In this document: piece by piece, positions 1,210 to 62,689 of the stretch | Layout of the letters: the number at the start of each line of letters is the position of its first letter | Position numbering within the stretch: the first letter of the stretch is position 1 | Assembly (NCBI GenBank): GCA_903839975.1 | Contig: CAIMEH010000013.1 | Location: forward strand, 15,999-79,998 | Length of the DNA: 64,000 nucleotides | From: an uncultured Candidatus Berkelbacteria bacterium | GTDB taxonomy: Bacteria; Patescibacteriota; UBA1384; 2-12-FULL-50-11 | Direction: 5' to 3' | Notes under the pieces: generated by a model | Told to the model about the DNA's origin: nothing | Databases searched by the model: none | What the model saw: the letters and a program-made list of their open reading frames with translations, nothing else | Program-made: the position numbers and the translations under genes

Positions 1210-3048
1210 ATGAGTGAAAAGAAGACGAAGAAGTTAACCTTCGCCAAGTTTTTAGATATTTTCAAGAAACAATCTTCCTGGAAGAAGTGGATTTTTGGCT
1301 CGCTCGCAGTAGTTGCCGTTATCGGCTTAGCCTACTTAACTTTTTCCCTGATTTATATCGGTAAAACTTACCCACGTTTAACAGTCGGTGGCGTAAAAGT
1401 TAGTGGGTTAAAGCAAGCCCAGGTTAAAAGTCTATTAGATGAACAGGCTAAAATAAACCAAGGTACGCCGCTAACACTCGTCTTCCAAGACAAAACTTCA
1501 ACCTTAAAACCAGAAGATATTAGCTGGCAGCTCGATACCGATGCAACGGCAACAAGTGCCGTTAATATCGGTCGCCAGAATGGTTTTTGGCGTAGCCTTT
1601 GGGCTCAGCTAAAATCACCTTTCGTAGTTACGGAAGTGCCGATGGCGATTACTTATAATTCTGATTCTTTAGCTAATAAACTTTCGGCTATCACTGGGCC
1701 AATTAACAAGCCGGCCACTAACGCTCAAGGGCAGTTTGCTGGCGGCAAGCTAACACTTACAGCAGAGAAGTCTGGCCAGGTAATCGATACCGATACAGTT
1801 TCCGCTCAAATTCTCTCGGCCTGGAGCCACTTTCAAACTATAAGCATTGCCATGCAGATGACTACGGATTTGCCGACGATTGTATTAGGCGACCAAGCTG
1901 CTCTTACCGCGCAGGCAAACAGTCTGGCGGCCACAAAATTAACCTTAAAGTGGCCAGCTGGCCAGGCAACGCTTTCTAAGACGGATGTCGAGCAGATGGT
2001 AGATTTTACCGCTGGTGATGCAAATACTGATGGCACCAAAACGCTAACGGCCCAGTTCACAGCCGATAAGATTCACCAGTTCCTACTAACTTATGCCACT
2101 ACAAATATCGATAAACCAGCGGTCGAACCGAAGCTGGCGATGGTTAATAACGTTCTAACCGTAACGACGCCAGCGGTTGGTGGCACGATTACTGATCTTG
2201 AATCTTCAACGCCGATAATTTTAGCCGAGCTTCGGTCGACTGACACAGCCAAGGTAGCGACTCTAACAATGAAGAGCCAAGATCCAACCATCAATCAGAA
2301 TAATCTGGCCTCGCTAGGCATTACTAGTTTAATCGGTGAAGGTATCACCAGCTTCGCTGGCTCACCGGCCAACCGAATAGTAAATATTAATCGAGGAGTA
2401 ACATTATTAAATAGTATTCTTGTTAAGCCAGGAACGGAGTTCTCTACACTGGATAATCTTGGCGAGATTGATGCCGCCAACGGTTTCGGCCAGGGCTTGG
2501 TGATAAAAGATAATCGAACTGTACCGGATTATGGCGGTGGGCTCTGCCAGGTTTCAACTACCCTTTTTCGCGCCGCCTTGGCTTCTGGGTTAAAGATTAC
2601 CGAGCGCCAGAATCATGCTTACAGAGTTAGCTACTACGAGCCGCCAGTTGGTTTGGATGCCACTATCTTTGATCCAGCTCCAGATTTTAAGTTCCTAAAC
2701 GACACCCCTGGCTATATTCTGGTTCAGGGAAAAGTTGTCGGCAATAAAGTAACTTTTGATTTCTACGGTACTAGTGACGGCAGAACTTCGGTTGTCTCGA
2801 CACCACAGATTCTAAGCACCACACCGGCCGGTGATCCGATTTATACCAATACCGATACGCTTAACATTGGGACCACTCAACAAATTGAAAAGGCCCATGA
2901 CGGTGCTCTGGCATCTGCGACTTACACAGTTACTCGTAACGGTGTGGTAATTAACCAACAGACGTTTAAGTCGAAATATAAACCTTGGCCGGCTCAGTAT
3001 TTAGTTGGCACCCACGACCCAGCTACTGGCCCAGCACCTACGCAGTAG
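1210..3048 (+). CDS. VanW-family protein with N-terminal TM anchor
   Basis: N-terminal hydrophobic segment. The C-terminal region (PGTEFSTLDNLGEI...GGGLCQVSTTLFRAAL...YRVSYYEPPVGLDATIF) resembles the VanW domain. Confidence 0.7.
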   Translation: MSEKKTKKLTFAKFLDIFKKQSSWKKWIFGSLAVVAVIGLAYLTFSLIYIGKTYPRLTVGGVKVSGLKQAQVKSLLDEQAKINQGTPLTLVFQDKTSTLKPEDISWQLDTDATATSAVNIGRQNGFWRSLWAQLKSPFVVTEVPMAITYNSDSLANKLSAITGPINKPATNAQGQFAGGKLTLTAEKSGQVIDTDTVSAQILSAWSHFQTISIAMQMTTDLPTIVLGDQAALTAQANSLAATKLTLKWPAGQATLSKTDVEQMVDFTAGDANTDGTKTLTAQFTADKIHQFLLTYATTNIDKPAVEPKLAMVNNVLTVTTPAVGGTITDLESSTPIILAELRSTDTAKVATLTMKSQDPTINQNNLASLGITSLIGEGITSFAGSPANRIVNINRGVTLLNSILVKPGTEFSTLDNLGEIDAANGFGQGLVIKDNRTVPDYGGGLCQVSTTLFRAALASGLKITERQNHAYRVSYYEPPVGLDATIFDPAPDFKFLNDTPGYILVQGKVVGNKVTFDFYGTSDGRTSVVSTPQILSTTPAGDPIYTNTDTLNIGTTQQIEKAHDGALASATYTVTRNGVVINQQTFKSKYKPWPAQYLVGTHDPATGPAPTQ

Positions 3049-47914: not shown

Positions 47915-49147
47915 GTGATGGATAAAGAATTATTACAGCCACTTTCTGGATTTCGCGATTATTTAGGACCAACGAAAGTTAGGATTATTCGAGCACTTCA
48001 GGAAACTTTTGAGCAGTACGGTTATCAGGCATTGGAGACGCCGGCCCTTGAACGTCAGGAGATACTGCTAGGCAAATTGGGCGAGGAAGGCCAGAAACAA
48101 CTTTATTTATTCGAGGACAACGGCAAACGAAAAGTGGGTTTGCGCTACGATCTAACCGTGCCGCTAGCTCGTTTTGTTTCCTCGAATCTCGGCAATATAC
48201 CATTACCATTTAAGCGTTACGAAATCGGTAATGCATGGAGAGCCGAGAAAGCCCAGAAAGGCCGTTTTCGCCAGTTTACCCAGGCCGATATTGACGTTGT
48301 TGGGGCGCCAGAACCATCGAGCGAAATCGAACTATTCTCGCTAGTGGCAGCTGTCGCCAAAAAGCTCGGTCTAAAAATTATCTATCAAGTATCTGACCGA
48401 CGAGTTTTGGCAGAAATCATGGAAGCGCTGAAAATTCCTGAGGGCGAGCGAATGCCGCTAATGCGCTTGCTCGATAAAAAAGACAAAATTAGCTCCGAAG
48501 ATTTTAATGCCGAGTTGGTTAAACTTGGGCTCAGTGATATCGAACGTCGTCAGATCGCCAGTACTTTCTTGAATGAAAGAGCCGATATTGAAAAAATCGA
48601 GAAGCTAACCGGCAAACCGGAGTTATTTAATACTGTTCGCGCCCTTTTGGATTGGGCTAAAAACGAGGGAGTTGAGGCTGAGTTTACGCCGGGCATGGTT
48701 CGCGGTTTGGACTACTACACCGGTACGATCTTCGAGATTAAAGCGCCCGAGTACGACGGCGGCACCGTCGTGGCTGGCGGTCGTTTCGATTCGCTAGTAG
48801 AGCAGTTAACTGGTCAAAAAATTCCAGCCGTTGGTATCTCGTTTGGTGTTGATCGTCTGGCCGATTTATTACAGGATAAAGAACAGAACGAGACTTTATA
48901 CATTGTTCGCTTGCCTGAGACCGCTAACGAGCTCGATAACTGGGTTCGTCAGCTGCGTGCCGACGGCAAAGACGTGGAAGTTTACTTGGACGAAAATGTA
49001 GAGCTAGGCAAGCAGATTAAATACGCCGACAAGCGCGGTTACCAAAATATTTTAATACCGTTCGAGAACGAGTGGGCCCGTGGTCAGATCGTTAGAAAAA
49101 ATCTAAAATCAGGTGACCAAGAGAGTATTAACCGAGACAAAATCTAA
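47915..49147 (+). CDS. hisS: histidyl-tRNA synthetase
   Basis: Class II aaRS motifs: GFRDYLGP (motif 1), RYDLTVPLARF and the GGRFD motif 3 region. Confidence 0.85.
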   Translation: MMDKELLQPLSGFRDYLGPTKVRIIRALQETFEQYGYQALETPALERQEILLGKLGEEGQKQLYLFEDNGKRKVGLRYDLTVPLARFVSSNLGNIPLPFKRYEIGNAWRAEKAQKGRFRQFTQADIDVVGAPEPSSEIELFSLVAAVAKKLGLKIIYQVSDRRVLAEIMEALKIPEGERMPLMRLLDKKDKISSEDFNAELVKLGLSDIERRQIASTFLNERADIEKIEKLTGKPELFNTVRALLDWAKNEGVEAEFTPGMVRGLDYYTGTIFEIKAPEYDGGTVVAGGRFDSLVEQLTGQKIPAVGISFGVDRLADLLQDKEQNETLYIVRLPETANELDNWVRQLRADGKDVEVYLDENVELGKQIKYADKRGYQNILIPFENEWARGQIVRKNLKSGDQESINRDKI

Positions 49148-52056
49148 TGGCTGAAAATAATACCGAAAAACGCAAATCGTTGTTTGATCTTGAAGAAGAA
49201 ACTTTAAAGTTCTGGCAGGAGAACAAGATCTTTGAAAAGTCCTTGGAGAAAAACGATAAGTCTAATATTTTCTCGTTCTACGATGGCCCACCATTTATTA
49301 CCGGTATGCCGCACTACGGCACGCTCTTGCCGTCGATTGCTAAGGATATAATTCCACGTTATCAAACCATGAAAGGCAAGTACGTCCGCCGAGTTTGGGG
49401 TTGGGACGTCCATGGGTTGCCGGCCGAAAATCAAGTCGAGAAACAGCTCGGGCTAAAATCCAAAAAAGACATCGAAAAGATGGGCATCGACAAGTTTATT
49501 GCCGCCTGCCGCGAGTACGTTAAAACTGGTTCGGAACAGTGGAATTGGTACGTTGACCACATCGGCCGTTGGGTTGATATGGAGCACTCTTATCGCACCG
49601 ACAATATCGAGTTTATGGAATCAGTCATGTGGATCTTCAAAGAACTCTACGACAAAGATTTAATTTATCAGGGTCGTCGAGTTTCGCTTTACTGCCCGCG
49701 TTGCGCCACCCCGCTCTCGAAGTTCGAGATTACGATGGACGACGAGAACTATAAAGACGTGGAAGACCCAGCCGTTACTGTCGCTTTCAAGCTGAAAGAT
49801 CAGGATGCTTACGTTTTGGCCTGGACAACTACCCCTTGGACGCTGCCATCCAACTTGGCCTTGGCTGTCGATGAGAACGCCGAGTATGTTAAGGTTTACG
49901 ACGCCAAAAACAAGCGCTACTACATCTTGGCTCACGAGGCGATGGTGCGCTACGACGAGATGGACTGGGAGATTAAAGAACATATTCCGGGCAAAGATTT
50001 AGTGGGCAAAGAGTACGAGCCGCTATTCAACTTCTTAGCCACCAACCCAGAGAAGGATTACCATATCTACGCTGCTAAGTTCGTAACGATGAACGAGGGT
50101 ACCGGCGTCATTCATATCGCTCCAGCGTTTGGCGAAGAAGATTTTAACTTCGGTCAAGAAGTTGGTTTGTCGATTCTGGAAACCTTGAACGACGAAGGCA
50201 AGTTTATCGAGCAGGTTAAACCTTGGGCGGGCGCTTATTATAAATCCGCCGATCCCGAGATTACCGCCGATTTAGAGAAACGTCAGCTTTTAATTAAAAA
50301 TGAGACTATTACGCACTCTTTTCCGCACTGCTACCGTTGCGGCACGCCGTTAATCTACAAGTCACAGATGCAGTGGTATCTAAAGATCTCCGAGCTCAAG
50401 AGCAAACTGCTCAGCGAGAACGACGCCATTAACTGGGTACCAGAGCATTTTGGCAAGGGTCGCTTTAACTACAATATTGAGAACGCACCCGACTGGTCGA
50501 TCTCCCGAACCCGTTACTGGGGTTCGCCGATTCCGGTTTGGGTCACCGAAAACGGCGAAAAAGTTGTAGTTGGCTCGATTAAGGAGTTGGAAGAACTTTC
50601 GGGCGAAAAAATTACCGACTTACACCGACCGAAGATCGATGACGTTGTTCTAACTCTAAAAGACGGACGCAAAGCCCATCGCGTCAAAGAAGTGTTGGAC
50701 TGCTGGTTCGAATCCGGGGCCATGCCGTACGCCCAGTTCCATTATCCATTCGAAAATAAAGAAGAGTTCGAAGCCAGTTACCCGACCGACTTTATCGTTG
50801 AATACACCGGTCAGCTCCGCGGTTGGTTCTACTACCTGCACGTCTTGGGTAACGCTTTAATGGGCAAGAACTCGTTCAAAAACGTTGTCGTTACTGGTGT
50901 GTTAATGGGCAACGACGGCCGCAAAATGAGCAAGAGCTACAATAATTTCCCAGACCCACGCCAAACACTAGAGAAGTACGGGGCAGAGTCGCTACGTCTA
51001 TTTTTCATGAACTCGAACGTCATGGCCGGCGGCGATTTGGCGGTTACCGAGGATGATATCCGCGAGCAGTCGCGCTTGCTGGGAATCCTGCACAACAGCT
51101 TTAAATACTTCCAGACCTACGCCGAGGTTCACAAATTCAAACCGATTGATGATCCCGAAAATCCTACAGCTGGTCGTGAGAACCCAACTTTAATCGATCG
51201 CTGGATATTACTGCGTTTGGAAGAGTTTATTATCGAGTACTCCGAGGCGCTCGACGCCTTCGATTTCGTGAAGTCCTCTCGCGCCATACGGCCGTTTATT
51301 GAGGACCTTTCCACGTGGTACATCAGACGCAGCCGTGATCGTTTCGTAGCGGGCGATTCTGCCGCCTTAGAGACGTTGCACGATGTCCTGACCAGCTTCG
51401 CTAAAGCGGTGGCACCGACGTTGCCGTTTAGCGCCGAATTAATCTACCGCTCGCTTACCGGCAAGACCAAAGAGAACTCAGTTCACCTACAAGAATACCC
51501 AGCCCTGCAGCATGATATCGTTAGCGAAAACAGCAATGTTTTAGCCAGGATGAGCGATATCCGCGAGATCGCTTCGATCGCCCACAAGATTCGGGCCGAG
51601 GCCGGTATCTCGCTTCGTCAGCCACTGGAATCGCTTTCAATCGTCGGTTTCAAAGAGCTGGAAACCGAAGAAGAGTTCTTGGAAATTCTGAAAGACGAAC
51701 TCAATATCTCCACCATTACCTTCGATGAGGTTGGCGGCAACTTTAAGTGCGTCGAGGCCAACGGCAAAAAAGTTTGCCTAAATCTAACTATCAACCAAGC
51801 CCTACAAGAAGAAGGTCAGTACCGTGAACTGCTTAGAGCCCTGCAAGATGCTCGTAAAAAAGCCGGCCTGAACGTCGGTGAACGGGTAACGGCGTGGTTC
51901 CATACCGACGAACAGAAAATTTCGGCCTTAATCGAAAAACGCCGCGAAGACATTCAAACAGCTCTGTCGTTTGAGGCGTTAATTCAAAAAGGCGCCCTAT
52001 CAGGAGCCGTGGAAACTATGAGCGGCGATCTGATGGTCGAATTTAAAAAGAACTAA
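49147..52056 (+). CDS. ileS: isoleucyl-tRNA synthetase
   Basis: Class I. GWDVHGLP (IleRS-type GWDCHGLP), the CP1 editing region and KMSKS (RKMSKSYNN); 969 aa. Confidence 0.85.
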   Translation: MAENNTEKRKSLFDLEEETLKFWQENKIFEKSLEKNDKSNIFSFYDGPPFITGMPHYGTLLPSIAKDIIPRYQTMKGKYVRRVWGWDVHGLPAENQVEKQLGLKSKKDIEKMGIDKFIAACREYVKTGSEQWNWYVDHIGRWVDMEHSYRTDNIEFMESVMWIFKELYDKDLIYQGRRVSLYCPRCATPLSKFEITMDDENYKDVEDPAVTVAFKLKDQDAYVLAWTTTPWTLPSNLALAVDENAEYVKVYDAKNKRYYILAHEAMVRYDEMDWEIKEHIPGKDLVGKEYEPLFNFLATNPEKDYHIYAAKFVTMNEGTGVIHIAPAFGEEDFNFGQEVGLSILETLNDEGKFIEQVKPWAGAYYKSADPEITADLEKRQLLIKNETITHSFPHCYRCGTPLIYKSQMQWYLKISELKSKLLSENDAINWVPEHFGKGRFNYNIENAPDWSISRTRYWGSPIPVWVTENGEKVVVGSIKELEELSGEKITDLHRPKIDDVVLTLKDGRKAHRVKEVLDCWFESGAMPYAQFHYPFENKEEFEASYPTDFIVEYTGQLRGWFYYLHVLGNALMGKNSFKNVVVTGVLMGNDGRKMSKSYNNFPDPRQTLEKYGAESLRLFFMNSNVMAGGDLAVTEDDIREQSRLLGILHNSFKYFQTYAEVHKFKPIDDPENPTAGRENPTLIDRWILLRLEEFIIEYSEALDAFDFVKSSRAIRPFIEDLSTWYIRRSRDRFVAGDSAALETLHDVLTSFAKAVAPTLPFSAELIYRSLTGKTKENSVHLQEYPALQHDIVSENSNVLARMSDIREIASIAHKIRAEAGISLRQPLESLSIVGFKELETEEEFLEILKDELNISTITFDEVGGNFKCVEANGKKVCLNLTINQALQEEGQYRELLRALQDARKKAGLNVGERVTAWFHTDEQKISALIEKRREDIQTALSFEALIQKGALSGAVETMSGDLMVEFKKN

Positions 52057-55037: not shown

Positions 55038-55685
55038 ATGCTTATCGCCTTTTTTCAAATTATCGCCACCTCTGTTGTTTGGGCGGTGTTAAAAATTTTT
55101 ACTCGTTTCGAGATACACGGCACGGAAAATTTGAAAGAAGTTAGTCGGCCATTTGTGGTTGTTGCAAATCATGAAAGCGTGCTGGATCCGCCGCTGATTG
55201 GGGTGATGTTGCTTCATCGACCACAGCTTTTTCCGATTCGTTTTATGACCAAAGATCTTTTGATCTATATCCCAATTTTCGGGCAGATTATTTGGTTATT
55301 GGGCGCTTTCAGGGCTCGCAAGAAGAAGGGTATTGGACGGTCGTTATTGGCGCCGGTTAAAATTCTTGAAGGTAGAAATGGCGTGATGATGTTCCCAGAA
55401 GCGCATATTATTCACGAACGGGCACATTTGGGCGAGGGTCGTCGTGGTGCGGCAATTTTGGCATTAACAACTAAGGCTCAGCTACTGCCTGTTTCTTTGC
55501 ATACTCCGGCTAATTTGAACCTGTTTACCTTTATTTTCACCAGGCCAAAAATCGTTGTTCGTGTCGGTACGCCGTATTATTTAAATAACCTGGATTACCC
55601 TGACTTCTCCGACGAAAACACCTTTGCCGCCACCAAAGTAATTATGCAAAAAATCGCCGACTTATATTTCCAGCACAAGTACTAA
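55038..55685 (+). CDS. plsC: 1-acyl-sn-glycerol-3-phosphate acyltransferase
   Basis: HxxxxD acyltransferase motif (VVANHESVLDPP) and the FPEAHII motif. Confidence 0.8.
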   Translation: MLIAFFQIIATSVVWAVLKIFTRFEIHGTENLKEVSRPFVVVANHESVLDPPLIGVMLLHRPQLFPIRFMTKDLLIYIPIFGQIIWLLGAFRARKKKGIGRSLLAPVKILEGRNGVMMFPEAHIIHERAHLGEGRRGAAILALTTKAQLLPVSLHTPANLNLFTFIFTRPKIVVRVGTPYYLNNLDYPDFSDENTFAATKVIMQKIADLYFQHKY

Positions 55686-55709
55686 GTTGATAATTGGTAC
55701 TATCAGGTA

Positions 55710-55738
55710 TTGACAGAGTATTTTTATAGTTGTATATT
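55710..55738 (+). promoter_or_regulatory. consensus-like sigma70 promoter TTGACA-17-TATATT driving precursor A and its maturase
   Basis: ttgacagagtatttttatagttgtatatt. Confidence 0.65.
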
Positions 55739-55785
55739 TTTCGTGATTGTTGAGGGGTCCGTACCCTAACATGGAGGTAAGTGAC

Positions 55786-55932
55786 ATGTCACTCGAAGAG
55801 TTGAAAAAGCTCTCGATCTCCACTTGTAATCTCGCGGTCAATTCGGTGCTAAGCAACGAATGTGACGGGGGTGACGACGATTGCGTCGACGGTCAGGACT
55901 CTGACGACGACTGCACAACGGCTGGCGGCTAG
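55786..55932 (+). CDS. RiPP precursor-like peptide A (48 aa) with Asp/Cys-rich core
   Basis: RBS ggaggt sits 7 nt before the ATG. Sequence: MSLEELKKLSISTCNLAVNSVLSNECDGGDDDCVDGQDSDDDCTTAGG. It lies immediately upstream of an rSAM/SPASM gene. Confidence 0.65.
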   Translation: MSLEELKKLSISTCNLAVNSVLSNECDGGDDDCVDGQDSDDDCTTAGG

Positions 55933-55953
55933 TTCGCAGGTCGGCATACTTCT

Positions 55954-55981
55954 GTGGGCGCGTACTTTTGTTCGCGCCCAC
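55954..55981 (+). terminator. attenuator-type GC hairpin between precursor A and the maturase (gtgggcgcg-N10-cgcgcccac followed by tattcttt)
   Basis: 9-bp GC stem with a weak T tract, suggesting partial termination. Confidence 0.55.
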
Positions 55982-55999
55982 TATTCTTTGGAGAAAAAT

Positions 56000-57223
56000 A
56001 TGGATCATAAAGCATATAAGCTAATCGTTGACGGTAGGGCGATAGTTTTCCTTCCAACACTAGGAAAATGTTTCGAAGTTTCTCCAGAGAAACTCGATGA
56101 ACTGCCCGACTACATAACCGCAGACGACTCTGTGAAACCTGTCGTCAAGAAGAAATACACCAGCGCCACCCTTGTACTAACCGATGATTGCAACTTGGCG
56201 TGTTCGTACTGCTATGAATTCGGGAAGCCAAGGCGCGACCCAATAACGATGAGTGTGGAGACGATTGAGAAAGCGATAAAAAGTCTAGTCGGGCGTGCCG
56301 TAAGTGAAAAAACTTCTGGCGTCAGACTCTACTTTTTTGGCGGCGAACCAACTTTGCGTCTCGATGAAATTATTTACGCCAAGCAACTCCTGGACAAGAA
56401 ATGCGGAGAGCTTGGCTTAAAAACCAGGTACTGCATTACTACTAATTGTTGCATGTCGGACGAAGCTGCTAATTGGGTCATGGAAAACATTGATTCAATT
56501 GGCATATCTTTCGACGGCAACAAGAGGATACAGGACAGGCAAAGAGATATGAGCTTTGATCAAGCTTTTGATCGAGCGAAACAATTCTTCTCTGTCTGTG
56601 GCAGTAAGAAAGTGAGCATTAGAGTGACAGTTTCGCTATGGAGTGCTCGTAAAATGGAAGAGATTGTCAGCTTCTTTGCGGCGAGCTTTCCCGGAGTAAA
56701 AATCTATCTTGAACCATTATTCAAGATAGGTAGAGGCAAAACAACTTCGCTTGAGATGCCAAATCCAGACAGATTCTTCAACGGATGTCTGGCTTGCTAT
56801 AAACTTGCCAAGACACTTGGGGTTGATGTTGTAACTAGCATTGGCAAACCGAGGAACGACACACCGTACTTCTGCGGTGCGCATGGTGGAGGACAAGTCT
56901 TCGCGCCTAATGGCGAAGTTCTTACCTGTCCAAGAATGTCATTGAGTTGTGAGCCCGGAAGAGACTTCTTCGTTTGCGGAGAAATTACAAATGATGGCAT
57001 TGTCTTTGATCGGGCAAAAACAGAATCGTTGGCGAGTCTACTAGACTACTCAAAGATACCTAAGTGTGCCGATTGCTTTGCAAGATATGCCTGTAGGGGC
57101 GACTGTCCGGCCAATAAAGCAGTGATTAACCAAGCTACCTTCTTCCATGAGCCTAGCTATAGGTGCGAAGCAATTAAGCGTTTCGTGTCAAAACTTTTGC
57201 TCTTGGAACTCGATTCAAGCTAA
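56000..57223 (+). CDS. radical SAM / SPASM-domain peptide maturase A
   Basis: CxxxCxxC (CNLACSYC) rSAM cluster. The C-terminal SPASM Cys pattern is CGAHGGG...CP...CGE...CADCFARYACRGDCP. Start placed at MDHKAYK after RBS ggagaaaaat. Confidence 0.85.
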   Translation: MDHKAYKLIVDGRAIVFLPTLGKCFEVSPEKLDELPDYITADDSVKPVVKKKYTSATLVLTDDCNLACSYCYEFGKPRRDPITMSVETIEKAIKSLVGRAVSEKTSGVRLYFFGGEPTLRLDEIIYAKQLLDKKCGELGLKTRYCITTNCCMSDEAANWVMENIDSIGISFDGNKRIQDRQRDMSFDQAFDRAKQFFSVCGSKKVSIRVTVSLWSARKMEEIVSFFAASFPGVKIYLEPLFKIGRGKTTSLEMPNPDRFFNGCLACYKLAKTLGVDVVTSIGKPRNDTPYFCGAHGGGQVFAPNGEVLTCPRMSLSCEPGRDFFVCGEITNDGIVFDRAKTESLASLLDYSKIPKCADCFARYACRGDCPANKAVINQATFFHEPSYRCEAIKRFVSKLLLLELDSS

Positions 57224-58144
57224 TTCACCCGGTGTTTCGCACTCTGCGACGCACCGGGCTATTTTTTTAACAAAATCCGCATCAATTGATTGGTTAGAAA
57301 TAATATATTCTTGCGCTAATGGCATTCCAATTTTGCCAGATTCGTAAATTATTTTGTTCAGTCTGTTTCTTTCTGATTTGCTCTCGGACCTTTCTTCGGA
57401 ATCCGTTATACCAAAATACTTTTCTGCAAAAATGCCACGTGGGGCAAACAGATTAACAATTGCTTCGCGAGTTAGTTGTGTTTCTTGGTTGTAAAAATCT
57501 TTCTCAACTGACTGACTTAAAAATTCTCTATATCGACTTGTTTCAAACACACTATGAATAATCTCGTGCAATACTAGTAAAATTATCCGTCGGACTAGTA
57601 TATCGCTCTCAATATTAAATACGGATAAGCCAATAAATTCGCGACTTAAAGATTTACCAAAATCGGCGCCGTATCTTGCTGGTTTGGAGTTTATTGCCAG
57701 CAACTCGATAGTAACTGGCTTGGAAATGTCTGGATTGAAGTTGCCGTAAAGTACAGACAGATCTTTAAGCGCCAGCTCAATCTCCTTTGAGTATTTTTTT
57801 ACTCCTTGATCCAAAGCTTCCCTAAAACTTTCTAATCTCTTTTGGTCGTCGGCCCAAGTTTCTTCAACAAATACTTGTAACTCTTCGAAATGTTTTGCAA
57901 TCGAAGCTGGAAAGATAGATGTGTCGCTTTCTGACAATGATTCTAGTAAGTCTGCTTTCTTGACGGTATCGAGAGATTTGAAATAACTTTTGAAATTAGA
58001 GTAATATTCAGTATCTTTCCAAGTTTGTTGCCTTATCTCTTCTGCAATCTCTAGGAATTTTTTTGAGCCGCCTTCGCTCCCGCTAGCTAGTAGTAGTGAA
58101 TAATAAACGTTAAATGCTTTATTGACCTCAAATTTTATCTCCAT
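57215..58144 (-). CDS. HExxH-motif putative zinc metallopeptidase (candidate leader peptidase); convergent with maturase A
   Basis: LVLHEIIHSVFE. The last ~15 codons overlap the rSAM-A terminator hairpin. Confidence 0.5.
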   Translation of the reverse strand: MEIKFEVNKAFNVYYSLLLASGSEGGSKKFLEIAEEIRQQTWKDTEYYSNFKSYFKSLDTVKKADLLESLSESDTSIFPASIAKHFEELQVFVEETWADDQKRLESFREALDQGVKKYSKEIELALKDLSVLYGNFNPDISKPVTIELLAINSKPARYGADFGKSLSREFIGLSVFNIESDILVRRIILLVLHEIIHSVFETSRYREFLSQSVEKDFYNQETQLTREAIVNLFAPRGIFAEKYFGITDSEERSESKSERNRLNKIIYESGKIGMPLAQEYIISNQSIDADFVKKIARCVAECETPGELA

Positions 58145-58337
58145 TTACTTGCAGAATACGCCTTGAGCAAGATAGATAAAAGAGGTGCTTTTTTGACGCG
58201 GAGGGGGAGTAAATAAATTGGGATGTGTTTTGGCTCATTGCATTTATTCTGGCCACTCATTGTAGCTATAAATTTTCGTAAAAATGTGCTACTATGACCG
58301 CATCCTGCCCATCAAGGGGCACCTTAAGGTGATCGAC

Positions 58338-58472
58338 ATGAAAACAAAGGCACGAGTTCGTGTTCCTTCCTGCTCTCAGCTCAAAAAGCTGAGGGGCAGA
58401 ATTAAGGGCTCAGCGTCTGCGGCCAATTGCGGTTCAAGCCAGTGTGCTTGTTCCTGTGCCTGCAGAAACTGA
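58338..58472 (+). CDS. RiPP precursor-like peptide B (44 aa) with Cys-rich C-terminal core
   Basis: RBS aaggtga precedes the ATG. Sequence: MKTKARVRVPSCSQLKKLRGRIKGSASAANCGSSQCACSCACRN. Confidence 0.55.
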   Translation: MKTKARVRVPSCSQLKKLRGRIKGSASAANCGSSQCACSCACRN

Positions 58473-58483
58473 ACATCGTCAAC

Positions 58484-58522
58484 GGGGTGGGAGTAGTAAT
58501 ACTTTCCGCCCCACTATTTTTT
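58484..58522 (+). terminator. attenuator/terminator hairpin between precursor B and the maturase (ggggtgg...ccgcccc followed by actatttttt)
   Basis: The same architecture and the same cccactatt tail as the hairpin after precursor A. Confidence 0.55.
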
Positions 58523-58539
58523 GATATTCAAGGAGCAAA

Positions 58540-59502
58540 ATGATGGGAAGCGAATTAAAGCTTTCGAGATTCGTTCATGCATTCGATATTGAAGATTCCC
58601 TGGCGCTCTTCCACTCATTTCGCGTGGATACTGTGTTTTTGCCGAAGGAGTCTCGCGACTTGTTGGATAGGCTAAGACTAGGAGTTTCTCCTACCGAGGC
58701 GAGGAAAATGTTTGGCACGAAGTCGACTAAAACTCTGACTGATAAATATTTTCTGGTCGACTCGTCATACGACGAAATTGCTGAGTTACAGAAATGCGTT
58801 CGTAAGGATGTTTCGGGAACGTACTTCCATACGATGTACCTTCTTCTTGCAGAACCGTGCAACCTCGACTGCGGGTATTGCTTCTTTCAGGACGAGATGC
58901 CGGTTAGAAAAACAGGCGACCGTATCATGAAGGAGTCGACGGCCAAAAACGCACTGGATTTATTCAGTACATGGGCTGAGAAGAAACAACCCGCGACAAT
59001 TATCCTCTATGGAGGCGACCCGTTGATAAACATGAGGACGTTAAAGTTTGCTATCTCCTACACTGACCAATTGGTAAGCGAAGGTAAATTGCACGCTGAC
59101 ACGGTTGTCTCGATTGTCTGCAACGGCACTCTAATCAACGAGGACTTTGTTGAGTTCCTGAAGAGCTTCGGCCGAAGAGTGTCTCTAGGGATATCTCTCG
59201 ACGGCCCGCGGCACATTCATGACTTTTGGCGAAAAGACAAGAAGAAGCGGGGCTCGTATGACCGAGCGATTGCAGGGTATACACTTGCGAAGGAGGGAGG
59301 CTTGAGCCCGTCTATATCTTGCACGCTTGCGCCCAACAATCTCCCTGAGATTGACGCAATCACTGACTGGCTAATTGAAATGGAGCCGGCTGGAATGAGT
59401 TTCAATCTACTGGCCGATACATCCAAATTGCACATGGATGCTAAATACGCCGAAGACGCAACTAACGCTATGATCAGGGCGTTTAAGCGTTTAAGCGTTT
59501 AA
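58540..59502 (+). CDS. radical SAM maturase B, rSAM core. It is terminated by a stop created within a (gcgtttaa)x3 tandem repeat and continues in the SPASM ORF 59508-59921.
   Basis: CNLDCGYCFF CxxxCxxC motif. Confidence 0.8.
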   Translation: MMGSELKLSRFVHAFDIEDSLALFHSFRVDTVFLPKESRDLLDRLRLGVSPTEARKMFGTKSTKTLTDKYFLVDSSYDEIAELQKCVRKDVSGTYFHTMYLLLAEPCNLDCGYCFFQDEMPVRKTGDRIMKESTAKNALDLFSTWAEKKQPATIILYGGDPLINMRTLKFAISYTDQLVSEGKLHADTVVSIVCNGTLINEDFVEFLKSFGRRVSLGISLDGPRHIHDFWRKDKKKRGSYDRAIAGYTLAKEGGLSPSISCTLAPNNLPEIDAITDWLIEMEPAGMSFNLLADTSKLHMDAKYAEDATNAMIRAFKRLSV

Positions 59503-59507
59503 GACAG

Positions 59508-59921
59508 GTGGGTATCTATGAGGACCGAATGATGCGGAAGGTGGACTCATTCACCGACGGCAGGAGATTCTACAAGGACTGTGCTGGCTACGGGGAACAA
59601 GTTGTAATCGCGCCCGATGGAGATATCGGACCATGCCATGCCCATACGGCAACTCGTAAATACTTCCGGGCAAACGTTAACACGCCTGGAGAGTTCGATC
59701 CTAGGAACGATTCAACTTTCGTTGAATGGAGTCAAAGGTCGCCCTTTACAATGCCCGAGTGTATTGGCTGCGAGGCTCTCGGCGTATGTGGTGGCGGTTG
59801 TGCCGCTAATGCCGAGAGAAGATCGGGAAGTATGCGTGGACTAGACGACTTGTTTTGTATTCACGCTAAGCAGGTCTTGGCCTGGATGATAACCGACCTG
59901 TACCTCGGTATGAATAGCTAG
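59508..59921 (+). CDS. SPASM-domain C-terminal fragment of maturase B (separate ORF in this assembly)
   Basis: CIGCEALGVCGGGCAANAE SPASM Cys cluster. Its frame is restored to the rSAM core if one 8-bp repeat unit is removed. Confidence 0.7.
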   Translation: MGIYEDRMMRKVDSFTDGRRFYKDCAGYGEQVVIAPDGDIGPCHAHTATRKYFRANVNTPGEFDPRNDSTFVEWSQRSPFTMPECIGCEALGVCGGGCAANAERRSGSMRGLDDLFCIHAKQVLAWMITDLYLGMNS

Positions 59922-59948
59922 CTCGCTAACAGCGAAACTAACAATGGC

Positions 59949-60635
59949 CTATCCCAGCAGGGATAGGCCTCTTTCTATAAATTCGTTAATATCTTTAATT
60001 GCAATATCGGTAAGTTCCTTTTGAGATTTCACCAACTCAGGATAGTTATGGTCGGTATAAGCACCGGTTTTGTCCCAAGGCCATAAGCTTTTTAATACAG
60101 GGTCTAATCCAGTAATTGCAAATGCATATATTTCTGCAAGTTTCCAAGTGATTTGGTCTGGTACGTCTGGATAACCCGAGCGCATTTTAGAAAAAAATTG
60201 GGTAATTACTAATTCGTGAGCTGTAATTCGTCGTTGTTCTCTGAAATCTTTATTCCATATACGCGCAACTTTATTTCCGCCCCAATTACTTATTCCTGGA
60301 TGGAATAAACTGACAACACATTCATAATTCTTATGAGCGAGCGGAAATTTTGTTAGTTCGGCAAGGCGCTTGAAAAATTTTTCATCAATTTCATCCCAAC
60401 CTTTTTGGTATTCAGATATTACTTTGTCTAGTTTGTCACCAGTTTCTGAATATCTTTTGTCGACAATCTTTTCAGAAAGTTTTTTATCACCTCTCGCAAT
60501 CCTTTTTGCATCTCCCGTATTAATATTCATAACTTGAGCATATTCAAGAATACCTTCTTCGCTTCTGCCCTGAAGCATTATAGAAATCATCTCGGTGTCG
60601 TATTCTTTGTCTTTAATAAATTTAAGTAGTGACAT
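59949..60635 (-). CDS. hypothetical protein (228 aa), convergent with maturase B
   Basis: ORF that shares the upstream motif ttttgacgcggagggggag with the HExxH gene. Confidence 0.45.
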   Translation of the reverse strand: MSLLKFIKDKEYDTEMISIMLQGRSEEGILEYAQVMNINTGDAKRIARGDKKLSEKIVDKRYSETGDKLDKVISEYQKGWDEIDEKFFKRLAELTKFPLAHKNYECVVSLFHPGISNWGGNKVARIWNKDFREQRRITAHELVITQFFSKMRSGYPDVPDQITWKLAEIYAFAITGLDPVLKSLWPWDKTGAYTDHNYPELVKSQKELTDIAIKDINEFIERGLSLLG

Positions 60636-60720
60636 ACTGCGATTATATACTCTCGATTAGCCAATTACACAATTTTGACGCGGAGGGGGAGGTTGGGTAA
60701 TAGAAATTAAACCGCCGCCC

Positions 60721-61008
60721 CTATTGGGGGCGGCGTTCATGATTGAGCGTCCAGTAGTACTGGAAGACGGCAGCAGCAGCAATGAATACTGCTGGCGTGT
60801 CAGATATCTTTAAGAACGTGTCTGGCTTTGTCCAGCCATACAGCGCCCAAAAAAGAATATTAAAGAATACGAGTAGGATGATATAGGGCGATACGTCCCT
60901 AACAGATCCGGTCTTCCGAACTCTTAACATCTGGAGCGGCAAACCGACCCAAGTAGTTATGATGGAAAAACTAACGGCGAAGAATCCAAAAACTGTGCTT
61001 GGTATCAA
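60721..61008 (-). CDS. SemiSWEET/PQ-loop family small transporter (95 aa, 3 TM)
   Basis: PQ-loop motif GLPLQML. Confidence 0.6.
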   Translation of the reverse strand: MIPSTVFGFFAVSFSIITTWVGLPLQMLRVRKTGSVRDVSPYIILLVFFNILFWALYGWTKPDTFLKISDTPAVFIAAAAVFQYYWTLNHERRPQ

Positions 61009-61118: not shown

Positions 61119-61664
61119 ATGATTTCTTTTTTGCGTGCCAAGCCGAAAGTTGAAAAAATTCTCGTCAAAGACGACCTTTTTTCGAAGGTAGCAGAGATGC
61201 GCTATAAGATTTACTGCGAAGAACTTGGGTTTCTAGAGAAGAAAAAATACCCAGAGAAGAGAGAGATGGACGAGTACGATGGTCAGTCGATTCACGTGGT
61301 AGTTAAGGTCGGTAACCGCATGGCAGGTTACGCCAGAGTTATTCTTCCCAATGGCAAGAAGTTGCCTATATTTGAAAACTTTAAAGTTCCGGAAGAGAAA
61401 GATCCTCATCATGCCTGTGAAATATCTCGTTTTATGATTTCCAAAGCTTATAGACATAAAGATGAAACAAGACGTGAAATATTTAAGCTTCTAGCCGAAG
61501 AAATTTTGAAGATAGTTGAAGAGCAAGAAGTAAAAGTTGTTTATGCAGTTGTTGAGGAGTGGCTTCTGAAAAGTCTTCAAAAGAGAGGGTATGAATTTGA
61601 AAAAATTGGAGAAGGACACTTCCACATGGGTGCGGTGACTTACCCAATTAAGCTCGTGCTATGA
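61119..61664 (+). CDS. GNAT-fold N-acyltransferase of the LuxI/FeeM (autoinducer-synthase-like, N-acyl amino acid synthase) family
   Basis: MRYKIYCEELGF, EYDGQSIHVVVKVGNRMAGYARV and EISRFMISKAYR align with the LuxI/FeeM conserved blocks. Confidence 0.65.
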   Translation: MISFLRAKPKVEKILVKDDLFSKVAEMRYKIYCEELGFLEKKKYPEKREMDEYDGQSIHVVVKVGNRMAGYARVILPNGKKLPIFENFKVPEEKDPHHACEISRFMISKAYRHKDETRREIFKLLAEEILKIVEEQEVKVVYAVVEEWLLKSLQKRGYEFEKIGEGHFHMGAVTYPIKLVL

Positions 61665-62689
61665 GCTCTCTGGCCCAATTTTTCACGAGCTGGGCAAGTA
61701 CGATTCAGTCAAGCTACGGTGTAAATCCGTGGATATTTATTGTTATTTACCTCGCTACCCTACCTTTTACTTGGTGGTTATTTTTTCTGATAGTTTTCTC
61801 GCTAAAAGATAAAAAATACTCCAAAGCCGGTTATTTTATTGTGCTCGAGCTAATTTTACTTGCGCTACCATACCTGTATCTTCTGATCTATATGCAAAAT
61901 ATTCACTGGTTGATAAGGGTGGCGGTAGTTATTCTAATATTCTGGTCATTTGTTTCTTTAAGAAAAAGGCTGCTACGCAAACAAAACGACTGGGATGATA
62001 TTGCTAAAGACTATGATTCAATCTCGAATATCTCAAAGGCTCATAAAGAAAAGATTGGCTATGTGTCAGAACTGGCGACCAAAAATAGTCCGAAAACAAT
62101 TCTAGATTTAGGTTGTGGCAGCGGCGTGATAGAAAAGAAGCTAGATGAGATGGGGTATAGAGGCGAGGTTACTTCTCTCGATTCTTCGGAAGAGATGTTG
62201 AAGATTGCCAAGAAGCACAGCTATAAAAACTTCAAACCCAATTTTATCTACCAGGACTTGAATGCTCAGCTACCCTTCAGGGAAGAGAAATTTGATTCAA
62301 TTATTATGGTCAACGTTCTGTTCTGCCTAAGGGACCAGAAGTCCTTTTTAGAGAGTGTGAATAAATTGCTAACAACGGATGGCAGTTTTGTATTGGTAAA
62401 TCCAAAGCCGATACCAACAACTGCCAACTTTTTCTCGGAACATTTCAAAGGTCTAAACCTGGTGGGGAAAATAAGGGAAATAGGAAGAGTAATTATTAAC
62501 ATTCCTGGATTAATCCATCTATTAGTATTCCAGAACAAATTAGATTCACAGGAAAAAAATAAAGATTCTTACGACTACAAAGATAAAGACGAGCTTGCAA
62601 CCCTCCTTAAAGGAGCTGGTTTGCTGGTGGAAAAAGTGGAGGAGATACAGGCTAACCAGAACTGGCTTTTCTACTGTAAAAAAGCCTAA
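61661..62689 (+). CDS. membrane-anchored class I SAM-dependent methyltransferase
   Basis: N-terminal 3-4 TM helices. SAM-binding motif I ILDLGCGSGV, with post-I and motif II also present. Confidence 0.75.
   Translation: MSSLAQFFTSWASTIQSSYGVNPWIFIVIYLATLPFTWWLFFLIVFSLKDKKYSKAGYFIVLELILLALPYLYLLIYMQNIHWLIRVAVVILIFWSFVSLRKRLLRKQNDWDDIAKDYDSISNISKAHKEKIGYVSELATKNSPKTILDLGCGSGVIEKKLDEMGYRGEVTSLDSSEEMLKIAKKHSYKNFKPNFIYQDLNAQLPFREEKFDSIIMVNVLFCLRDQKSFLESVNKLLTTDGSFVLVNPKPIPTTANFFSEHFKGLNLVGKIREIGRVIINIPGLIHLLVFQNKLDSQEKNKDSYDYKDKDELATLLKGAGLLVEKVEEIQANQNWLFYCKKA

Follow-up and report, generated by a model that had tools for sequence, protein, structure and literature searches.

The locus described here raises the question of whether a very short, cysteine-rich open reading frame (ORF) lying just upstream of a radical S-adenosylmethionine (SAM) enzyme gene is a real gene and, if so, what becomes of its product. 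The ORF, termed peptide B, occupies positions 58338-58472 of a 64,000-nucleotide stretch of DNA (the window) from an uncultured Candidatus Berkelbacteria bacterium (assembly GCA_903839975.1, contig CAIMEH010000013.1, positions 15,999 to 79,998, forward strand), and its radical SAM enzyme is termed maturase B. A preliminary description of the same DNA had proposed that peptide B is a precursor peptide and that its module is one of two paralogous precursor-maturase modules, A and B. Here, peptide B is considered likely to be a genuine, unannotated precursor gene of a ribosomally synthesized peptide that is modified after translation (RiPP), belonging to a Patescibacteria-type branch of the FibroRumin cysteine-rich systems and processed by the mechanism proposed below.

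Peptide B is a conserved gene under purifying selection

Peptide B comprises 44 amino acids and a stop codon (MKTKARVRVPSCSQLKKLRGRIKGSASAANCGSSQCACSCACRN), with six cysteines in total. Its sequence and coordinates had been given exactly in the preliminary description, as had the presence of five cysteines in the C-terminal 15 residues (NCGSSQCACSCACRN), four of which alternate with single other residues (C36, C38, C40 and C42). Across all six reading frames of the whole 64-kb window, the pattern C.C.C.C occurs this once. The features of the gene and of the region immediately upstream are:

58287 to 58295, forward strand: putative extended -10 promoter box, TGcTACTAT, assigned with low confidence
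58306 to 58321, forward strand: conserved stem-loop of the 5' untranslated region, with a 5-6 bp stem and a loop of ~6 nt, abutting the 5' side of the ribosome-binding site
58326 to 58332, forward strand: Shine-Dalgarno sequence AAGGTGA of peptide B, ending 5 nt 5' of the ATG at 58338
58338 to 58472, forward strand: precursor peptide B gene, ATG at 58338, TGA at 58470-58472
58359 to 58403, forward strand: leader recognition motif, residues 8-22, R-V-P-x3-Q-x2-K-L-x-G-x-I, in which L18, G20 and I22 are invariant
58440 to 58469, forward strand: predicted core, residues 35-44, QCACSCACRN, with C36, A37, C38, C40, C42 and R43 unchanged throughout the subfamily

Loci for comparison were taken from the contigs of the closest maturase homologues and from a maturase-profile scan with one genome per species. 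Orthologues of peptide B were found directly 5' of orthologous maturases in nine of them (L001, L002, L003, L085 (partial), L086, L087, L088, L004 and L005, the last two being Berkelbacteria loci), and in all ten loci, the window included, the peptide gene is co-oriented with the radical SAM/SPASM gene. Residues M1, L18, G20, I22, C36, A37, C38, C40, C42 and R43 are invariant in the alignment, and the C-terminal end of the subfamily has the fixed form C-A-C-x-C-x-C-R. Pairwise comparison of the window with its four closest relatives gave dN/dS values of 0.07, 0.08, 0.17 and 0.21, with synonymous differences at 65-72% of sites (pS 0.65-0.72), which is near saturation; peptide B is therefore under strong purifying selection at the protein level. 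This selection and the conservation in nine loci, a check that the preliminary description had itself put forward, identify the ORF as a real gene, and the recurrence of ORF, core and downstream hairpin beside orthologous maturases in nine other loci is more than chance would give.

Peptide B has nevertheless escaped every annotation pipeline. Its exact sequence was not found among ~15 billion predicted proteins, a phmmer search of 1.84 billion cluster representatives returned one spurious match to a 5241-aa protein and no true homologue, and Pfam and NCBIfam scans of both the 44-aa peptide and a 62-aa extended version gave no family even at E <= 10. The sactipeptide and ranthipeptide precursor models suggested in the preliminary description likewise failed to recognise it. 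In locus L087 the public maturase call (1536-3020, 494 aa) starts too far 5' and takes in the last part of the precursor ORF (1435-1569), which illustrates why annotation misses such peptides.

Counterparts of the Shine-Dalgarno sequence (AAGGTG or AGGAG) are present in the loci orthologous to peptide B. The preliminary description had allowed for a true start at 58284, giving a 62-aa product without leader-core organisation; this start was rejected because L001 and L086 hold no in-frame start 5' of the M/V-K-T-K beginning of the peptide, the upstream frames differ between loci, and the ATG at 58284 lacks a Shine-Dalgarno sequence and falls within a conserved promoter-like box, TGcTAnnnT. This box, in the form TGCTA(A/C)(A/T/G)(A/C)T, stands at the equal position in the window, L001, L002 and L086, although a consensus promoter scan called no promoter for peptide B, the box at 58287-58295 included; if it does act as a -10 element, the ATG at 58284 would fall upstream of the resulting transcript start. 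The stem-loop at 58306-58321 has a CCC-N6-GGG core, and RNAalifold analysis of five loci returned six pairs, of which three are invariant C-G pairs and one is compensatory (G-C, A-U or G-U). The similarity between loci 5' of peptide B thus lies at the DNA/RNA level and is explained by this RNA stem and the TGcTAnnnT box.

The conserved RNA structures on either side of the ORF, and the fact that no gene caller has ever called it, would fit a reading in which the ORF is not translated and the conserved element is an RNA, or in which the real product is the 62-aa protein from 58284. Such a reading is extremely improbable given the low dN/dS at near-saturated synonymous sites, the Shine-Dalgarno sequence 5 nt from the ATG at 58338, the inability of the L001 and L086 ORFs to extend 5' and the differing frames of the upstream similarity; in addition, a search of positions 55500-60800 with Rfam found no element.

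Maturase B is interrupted by an 8-bp duplication

On the 3' side of peptide B the gene order is a hairpin (58484-58512), a T-run, AAGGAG and the radical SAM gene, with its ATG at 58540. The features of this region are:

58484 to 58512, forward strand: intercistronic GC-rich hairpin B, starting 11 nt past the stop codon (dG -18.8 kcal/mol, z -3.85)
58513 to 58522, forward strand: T-run tail ACTATTTTTT, with six T in the first 9 nt; together with the stem, a possible leaky intrinsic terminator
58530 to 58535, forward strand: Shine-Dalgarno sequence AAGGAG of maturase B, ahead of the ATG at 58540
58540 to 59502, forward strand: 5' part of maturase B, with an N-terminus resembling a RiPP recognition element (RRE) and the radical SAM core C107-x3-C111-x2-C114, ending at a premature TAA
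59479 to 59502, forward strand: three tandem copies of GCGTTTAA, the third of which shifts the frame and makes the TAA at 59500-59502
59496 to 59921, forward strand: 3' part of maturase B, read in frame +1 with respect to the 5' part, with the SPASM domain, seven auxiliary-cluster cysteines and the motif GIYEDRMMR

Maturase B is thus encoded as a radical SAM part of ~320 aa and a SPASM part of 137 aa (ORF 59508-59921). The 5' part matches Pfam Radical_SAM (PF04055, 1.1e-14, 55.4 bits) and positions 1-318 of TIGR04136 (113 bits), and its motif C107-N-L-D-C111-G-Y-C114 has the canonical CX3CX2C form. The 3' part matches the TIGR04085 SPASM model (54.9 bits, cut-off 27) and positions 321-454 of TIGR04136 (136.6 bits). 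Removal of one 8-bp copy yields an uninterrupted protein of 457 aa with SPASM cysteines at residues 345, 363, 405, 408, 414, 418 and 437, and this repaired maturase B is collinear with the intact 456-aa proteins P0001, P0002 and P0004-P0006, its five closest orthologues (60-76% identity). Its residues 8-452 align with positions 1-454 of the 458 in TIGR04136, 'FibroRumin system radical SAM peptide maturase', at 270.5 bits.

As sequenced, the SPASM domain lies in the other frame behind the premature stop. The preliminary description had overlooked this frameshift, which also appears in the deposited protein of this genome, P0003 (319 aa, the same truncation). The European Nucleotide Archive (ENA) contig L084 matches the window at 100% identity across 1752 nt, frameshift included; this identity may stem from the same data, and its independence as evidence for the frameshift is therefore uncertain. 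A split, two-subunit maturase was also considered and rejected, as neither a ribosome-binding site nor an in-frame ATG is suitably placed past the premature stop. Since the duplication removes the SPASM domain, module B is probably non-functional in this genome; maturase B is probably inactive, and the module probably represents a recent pseudogene or an off-phase variant in which the peptide gene is intact.

Whether the module is an evolutionary relic here, with a peptide that is encoded and never matured because its enzyme lacks the SPASM domain, is evenly poised. The frameshift at residue ~320, ahead of the seven SPASM cysteines, the equal truncation in the deposited protein and in L084, and the intact state of all five closest orthologues argue for a relic, whereas the frame past the lesion carries no other damage, peptide gene, Shine-Dalgarno sequence and hairpin are all intact, and L084 and the window contig perhaps share their source data. 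The undamaged frame and the intact peptide gene suggest a lesion that arose recently, that slippage can reverse, or that represents a minority or assembly allele.

Recognition of the peptide would fall to the N-terminal region of the enzyme. Residues 4 to ~95 of maturase B align in sequence with residues 5 to ~106 of TigE, a stretch that includes the crystallographic RRE of TigE (residues 3-85; PMC10878394), and leader binding by an RRE is likely on this basis.

Peptide B belongs to a wider FibroRumin-like family

The species-representative profile scan returned 262 stretches with maturase relatives, of which 80 loci were kept for counting the composition of the wider family, and upstream peptides were counted over 88 loci. 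By record title, the 80 kept loci include 33 from Patescibacteria and three from DPANN archaea, and the others include Ruminococcus, Fibrobacter, Bacteroidales, Bacillota, cyanobacteria and proteobacteria. A candidate cysteine-rich small ORF lies immediately upstream of the maturase in 73 of the 88 loci, and CxCxC is present in 59 of these 73 peptides and CxCxCxC in 49. The residues between the cysteines are A, S, G, N or T, with glycine in 28 cases, and some cores stop at the last cysteine (...CACGCSC). A leader motif, h-x-G-x-[IVLT], was found in 57 of the 73 peptides, placed 10-28 residues (median 13) ahead of the first CxC; peptide B carries it in the family-wide form (V/I)-P-x3-(Q/D/E)-x2-K-(L/V)-x-G-x-I, about 13-16 residues ahead of the core. 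Cores vary in length and in the number of CxC units, and the leader is conserved. Hypervariable cores behind a conserved leader are typical of RiPP precursors, and they bear out the earlier proposal of a small precursor-type gene with leader-core layout, coupled to a maturase.

The isoleucyl-tRNA synthetase of the window (IleRS, 49147-52056) is nearest, at 60-63% identity, to proteins named as Saccharimonadales, Patescibacteria and Berkelbacteria, which places the window in a Patescibacteria (candidate phyla radiation) lineage. The window and the syntenic locus L001 share 76% identity in maturase B and 71% in the neighbouring protein p228 (described below), but 59% in IleRS, a difference that may point to strong constraint on the module or to its transfer. 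Conservation beyond that of IleRS would suggest a housekeeping-like role, and it could be taken, with the six cysteines in 44 residues and the lack of a transporter or peptidase nearby, to mean that peptide B is no substrate at all but a small metal- or Fe-S-binding protein, metallothionein- or chaperone-like, encoded beside a radical SAM enzyme that acts on something else. This is very improbable, as in 57 of 73 loci a leader motif of conserved residues other than cysteine keeps a fixed spacing to the core, the N-terminus of the enzyme is of the RRE type and aligns with that of TigE, and variable cores behind a constant leader are typical of RiPP precursors.

Among curated families, FibroRumin (TIGR04135 for the precursor, TIGR04136 for the maturase) is the closest: TIGR04136 is the top-scoring family for maturase B, end to end, and FibroRumin precursors have the same layout of a short leader with h-x-G-x-I followed by a CxCxC-rich core, for example ARCACVACNSCTCACSCR. 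Peptides of the Fibrobacter/Ruminococcus type reach 50-55 bits on TIGR04135 (cut-off 45 bits), the model named 'FibroRumin family radical SAM-modified Cys-rich RiPP', and as a control the two peptides of the Fibrobacter locus L082 scored 55.2 and 50.1 bits, which makes them bona fide members. Comparison with hhalign related the peptide B subfamily to FibroRumin precursors with 95% probability (E 3.9e-8) over 25 cysteine-free leader columns, and to other Patescibacteria CxC peptides with 97.7% (E 2e-12).

Meanwhile, module B falls short of both curated cut-offs, with 270 against 400 bits for the maturase and no match against the 45 bits required of the peptide. The core of peptide B is much shorter (four cysteines), sits at the extreme C-terminus and lacks an acidic or aromatic follower such as ...EFEW. 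True FibroRumin loci (L058, L059 and L079-L082, from Fibrobacter, Ruminococcus, Kosakonia and Dechloromonas) have two tandem precursors and genes that overlap or abut the maturase without a hairpin, whereas in Patescibacteria-type loci (L004-L077) a single precursor is followed by a gap of ~60-120 nt with a strong hairpin. The module B type also has p228 as an extra conserved neighbour, and its host is a Patescibacteria bacterium. By these profile comparisons, peptide B is a divergent relative within a wider FibroRumin-like clade, outside both curated models. Literature searches on FibroRumin, TIGR04135, TIGR04136 and the core strings found no published chemistry, and broader searches on RiPPs, the candidate phyla radiation and cysteine-rich peptides found nothing specific to the family of peptide B.

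A conserved hairpin separates precursor and maturase, and module A is only distantly similar

The hairpin at 58484-58512 was confirmed as a stable structure, since none of 200 shuffled sequences folds as well, and a run of six T begins 4 nt past the stem. The preliminary description had held that this hairpin and its tail mirror those of module A, the features of which are:

55710 to 55738, forward strand: near-consensus promoter of module A, TTGACA-17-TATATT, from the promoter scan
55786 to 55932, forward strand: precursor A, 48 aa, MSLEELKKLSISTCNLAVNSVLSNECDGGDDDCVDGQDSDDDCTTAGG, with a Cys/Asp-rich core ECDGGDDDCVDGQDSDDDC; found in the protein collection
55954 to 55981, forward strand: hairpin after precursor A, with tail TATTCTTT (dG -23.4, z -3.0)
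56000 to 57223, forward strand: maturase A, a radical SAM/SPASM protein whose best family is the PapB ranthipeptide maturase (NF047865, 105.6 bits, cut-off 340)
57215 to 58144, reverse strand: p309, 309 aa, containing HEIIH (an HExxH motif), its gene being convergent with that of maturase A and divergent with that of peptide B

The likeness of the two tails proved exact over a 9-mer, CCCACTATT, which stands at the 3' end of both hairpins (55977-55985 and 58510-58518) and nowhere else in the window; 0.24 occurrences are expected, and two of 100 shuffles reach two matches anywhere.

The hairpin is a family trait. When sequences of the subfamily were folded one by one, all 10 loci had a hairpin 4-15 nt past the stop codon (dG -18 to -29, z -1.9 to -5.6), and of the 55 loci of the wider family whose two genes lie 25 nt or more apart, 43 fold at z <= -2 (median z -3.67). 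The hairpin sequences of the subfamily diverge, for example GGGGTGGGAG.../GAGGGTGGGCC.../GGGGCGGGAAGC.... At least five T within 9 nt of the hairpin were found in 11 of 46 related loci, the window included. Given that so few loci have a U-rich tail, the conserved element is the stem-loop and not a canonical terminator, and folds of the hairpin regions contained no competing anti-terminator structure. The attenuator design proposed earlier therefore stands as regards a conserved hairpin between precursor and maturase, but not as regards attenuation.

In lantibiotic and bacteriocin operons such as nisA-nisB and sboA-albA, a stem-loop between the precursor and modification genes allows partial read-through and a high ratio of precursor to enzyme mRNA. 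The hairpin of module B is likewise stable and lies between precursor and modification gene, although most members of the peptide B family lack the U-tract of an intrinsic terminator, and by analogy it may plausibly serve as a leaky terminator and/or stabilise the 3' end.

The proposed paralogy of the two modules holds at the level of the superfamily, and their cores do differ. Close paralogy is not borne out: maturases A and B share 22% identity and have different best families, the leaders of the two precursors are unrelated, as are p309 and p228, and module A is missing, together with p309, from the otherwise syntenic L001. The core of precursor A is, from its sequence, typical of PapB-type ranthipeptides. 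The gene for p309 shares 9 nt with the end of maturase A; its product matched no Pfam or NCBIfam family, its only match among the fetched loci was in the identical contig L084, and its single-sequence AlphaFold2 model was unusable (mean predicted local distance difference test score (pLDDT) 37.5).

Predicted chemistry of the core

By profile, the solved structures closest to maturase B are TigE (8VPO, E 4e-49, full length), CteB (5WGG, 2e-44) and anSME (2.5e-33), whereas CteB is the best single-sequence match in the PDB (E 9e-19). TigE, a methyl-cyclopropylglycine synthase, and CteB, the thioether synthase of SCIFF, are both peptide maturases of the RRE-radical SAM-SPASM type. Sactipeptide and ranthipeptide maturase models leave maturase B far below all cut-offs. 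Four characterised systems offer comparisons with module B, each of them partial.

The SCIFF/thermocellin system with CteB (TIGR03973/TIGR03974; 5WGG) also pairs a six-cysteine peptide of ~45 aa with one RRE-radical SAM-SPASM maturase in the absence of a transporter, and CteB likewise has a seven-cysteine SPASM motif. It differs in that peptide B is unmatched by TIGR03973 (E <= 10), maturase B reaches 78 bits on TIGR03974 (cut-off 425), and the alternating CxC of core B is not the SCIFF motif. The ranthipeptide maturase PapB of freyrasin (NF047865) is the second-best family for maturase B (150.6 bits, cut-off 340) and is likewise a single SPASM enzyme acting on a cysteine-rich repeat core, but it requires CxxxD/E units; Asp and Glu are both missing from core B, and the Cys/Asp-rich precursor A fits far better. 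Streptosactin (StsA/StsB) shares the alternating donors, StsA having a CxCxC donor pattern at Cys2, Cys4 and Cys6 (PMC10288494). StsA has downstream GxGxG acceptors, however, whereas peptide B has only R-N past its cysteine run, and the match of the StsB family to maturase B is negligible (E 0.064, SPASM half only). TigE/TvgB (8VPO) gave the best profile match, RRE included, but their substrates are TIGSVS/TVGG repeats with Ile or Val, residues that core B does not have. The GYW motif of TigE aligns with the most conserved motif of the family, G[IVL][YF]EDRMMR, in which the aromatic residue is Y in 27 of 32 sequences, F in four and H in one; maturase B reads G-I-Y-E-D-R here and so lacks the Trp of the cyclopropyl synthases, in which the Tyr of GYW ligates auxiliary cluster I, and five of 32 family members have Phe or His in place of that Tyr.

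Residues near the catalytic centre are F115, Y157, V193, S219, H364 and A365 in maturase B, F112, F152, T186, S210, H363 and Q364 in CteB, and F, F, V, S, K and G in TigE.

Characterised SPASM maturases that act on cysteine-rich cores, such as CteB, PapB, QhpD and the sactisynthases, all make thioethers (PMC10288494, PMC11002830, PMC10177961), and in PapB and Tte1186 a substrate cysteine ligates an auxiliary cluster (PMC10177961). As cysteines are also the only conserved reactive residues of the core, thioether cross-linking is the leading hypothesis by analogy, held, given that modification occurs, with somewhat less than even confidence. If the residue between two cysteines were the acceptor, a glycine there would permit attack at C-alpha only. 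An anSME-type motif, C/S-x-P/A-x-R, was ruled out by inspection of core B.

With the same gene and the same enzyme-substrate pair, the CxCxCxC core may instead undergo a different radical reaction. Options include cyclopropanation or formation of a C-C bond (as for TigE/TvgB), cysteine oxidation (as for anSME), epimerisation, and a novel sulfur chemistry that joins adjacent cysteines. Such chemistry is kept open because TigE is ahead of CteB among the relatives, with anSME strong too, because the six proximity residues do not discriminate between enzyme types, and because the cores of some relatives stop at the last cysteine without a conventional acceptor; the alignment of the TigE GYW with the most conserved motif of the family points the same way. 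However, the invariant core residues are only Cys (with Ala and Arg), for which the characterised precedent is thioether formation, the Trp of GYW is absent and its Tyr replaceable by Phe, and core B offers no Val or Ile target. A reaction other than thioether formation is accordingly possible and somewhat unlikely.

Several results weigh against peptide B as the substrate of a thioether-forming FibroRumin-type maturase. The repaired maturase misses the TIGR04136 cut-off of 400 bits, where a Fibrobacter control scored 796.9, and TIGR04135 (cut-off 45 bits) gave no match to peptide B at E <= 10. The best profile relative, TigE, is a cyclopropylglycine synthase and not a thioether synthase, and maturase B is identical to CteB at three of six catalytic-proximity residues and equally so to TigE. 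Core B ends C-A-C-R-N, and those of some relatives at the last cysteine, so that no downstream acceptor of the sactipeptide or ranthipeptide type is present. No transporter or recognisable leader peptidase lies near module B. A simple terminator scan called neither hairpin A nor hairpin B, and most related loci have no U-tract. Finally, the frameshift lies upstream of all seven SPASM cysteines, which the truncated product lacks.

p228 and the 3' neighbourhood

Two further features lie beyond maturase B:

59946 to 59969, no strand: GC-rich hairpin, a perfect 10-bp palindrome between the convergent maturase B and p228, terminator-like on both strands
59949 to 60635, reverse strand: p228, 228 aa, a conserved neighbour and possible third component, perhaps a zincin-like hydrolase

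The p228 gene adjoins the maturase in ~20 of 88 loci, in convergent or co-directional orientation. Its 41 homologues have no Pfam domain, and their invariant residues are H140, E141, C106 and H196; a near-invariant H146 is Q in the window. The AlphaFold2 model of p228 has a pLDDT of 94.9, and Foldseek returned weak local matches to zincin peptidases (120-130 residues, root-mean-square deviation ~3-4 A, E >= 0.58). A groundwater contig, L089, encodes a 70%-identical p228 homologue with no maturase within 5 kb, so that the link between p228 and the maturase is frequent and not obligate. A processing role for p228 is a guess.

Further along, an acyltransferase in the region 61119-62689 scored 104 bits, against a cut-off of 112, on a PEP-CTERM/exosortase-associated family. 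It is followed by a methyltransferase with an overlapping stop/start, for which a hydrophobic N-terminal region was read from the sequence.

Discussion

The data allow a model of module B to be proposed, in which peptide B and maturase B would be transcribed from one promoter. The stem-loop between them, followed by a T-run in the window, would act as a leaky terminator and/or a 3'-protective element, and as a result precursor mRNA would exceed enzyme mRNA. The RRE-like N-terminal domain of the maturase would then bind the leader, the radical SAM cluster would generate a 5'-deoxyadenosyl radical that abstracts hydrogen from a core residue, and a core cysteine thiolate at an open site of SPASM auxiliary cluster I would capture the carbon radical. 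By analogy with CteB, PapB and the sactisynthases, the product would contain intramolecular thioether cross-links, and p228 may, as a guess, process it further.

A more speculative proposal, regarded as clearly unlikely, is that the CxCxCxC peptides of the branch rich in Patescibacteria and DPANN archaea are not exported antibiotics but intracellular, housekeeping-like products of the redox or metal cofactor type, following a logic comparable to that of mycofactocin, pyrroloquinoline quinone (PQQ) and SCIFF. The absence of a nearby transporter, the stronger conservation of the module than of IleRS between two genomes and the family-wide stem-loop are consistent with it. The maturase may then install an undescribed cross-link within the alternating cysteines, a type of link that cores ending at the last cysteine would require. 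If this were true, two or three genes would make up a minimal set: peptide, SPASM maturase and p228.

Patescibacteria and DPANN archaea are organisms with minimal genomes, in which few natural-product pathways are expected. The FibroRumin family, catalogued only bioinformatically, is large and links peptide B to many such minimal-genome hosts. For cloning from this genome, maturase B needs to be repaired or replaced by an orthologue. Furthermore, CACSCACR, with four cysteines in eight residues, is about the smallest substrate on which the chemistry of this SPASM clade could be worked out, and the leader motif, the intercistronic stem-loop and p228 provide handles for genome mining and heterologous reconstitution.

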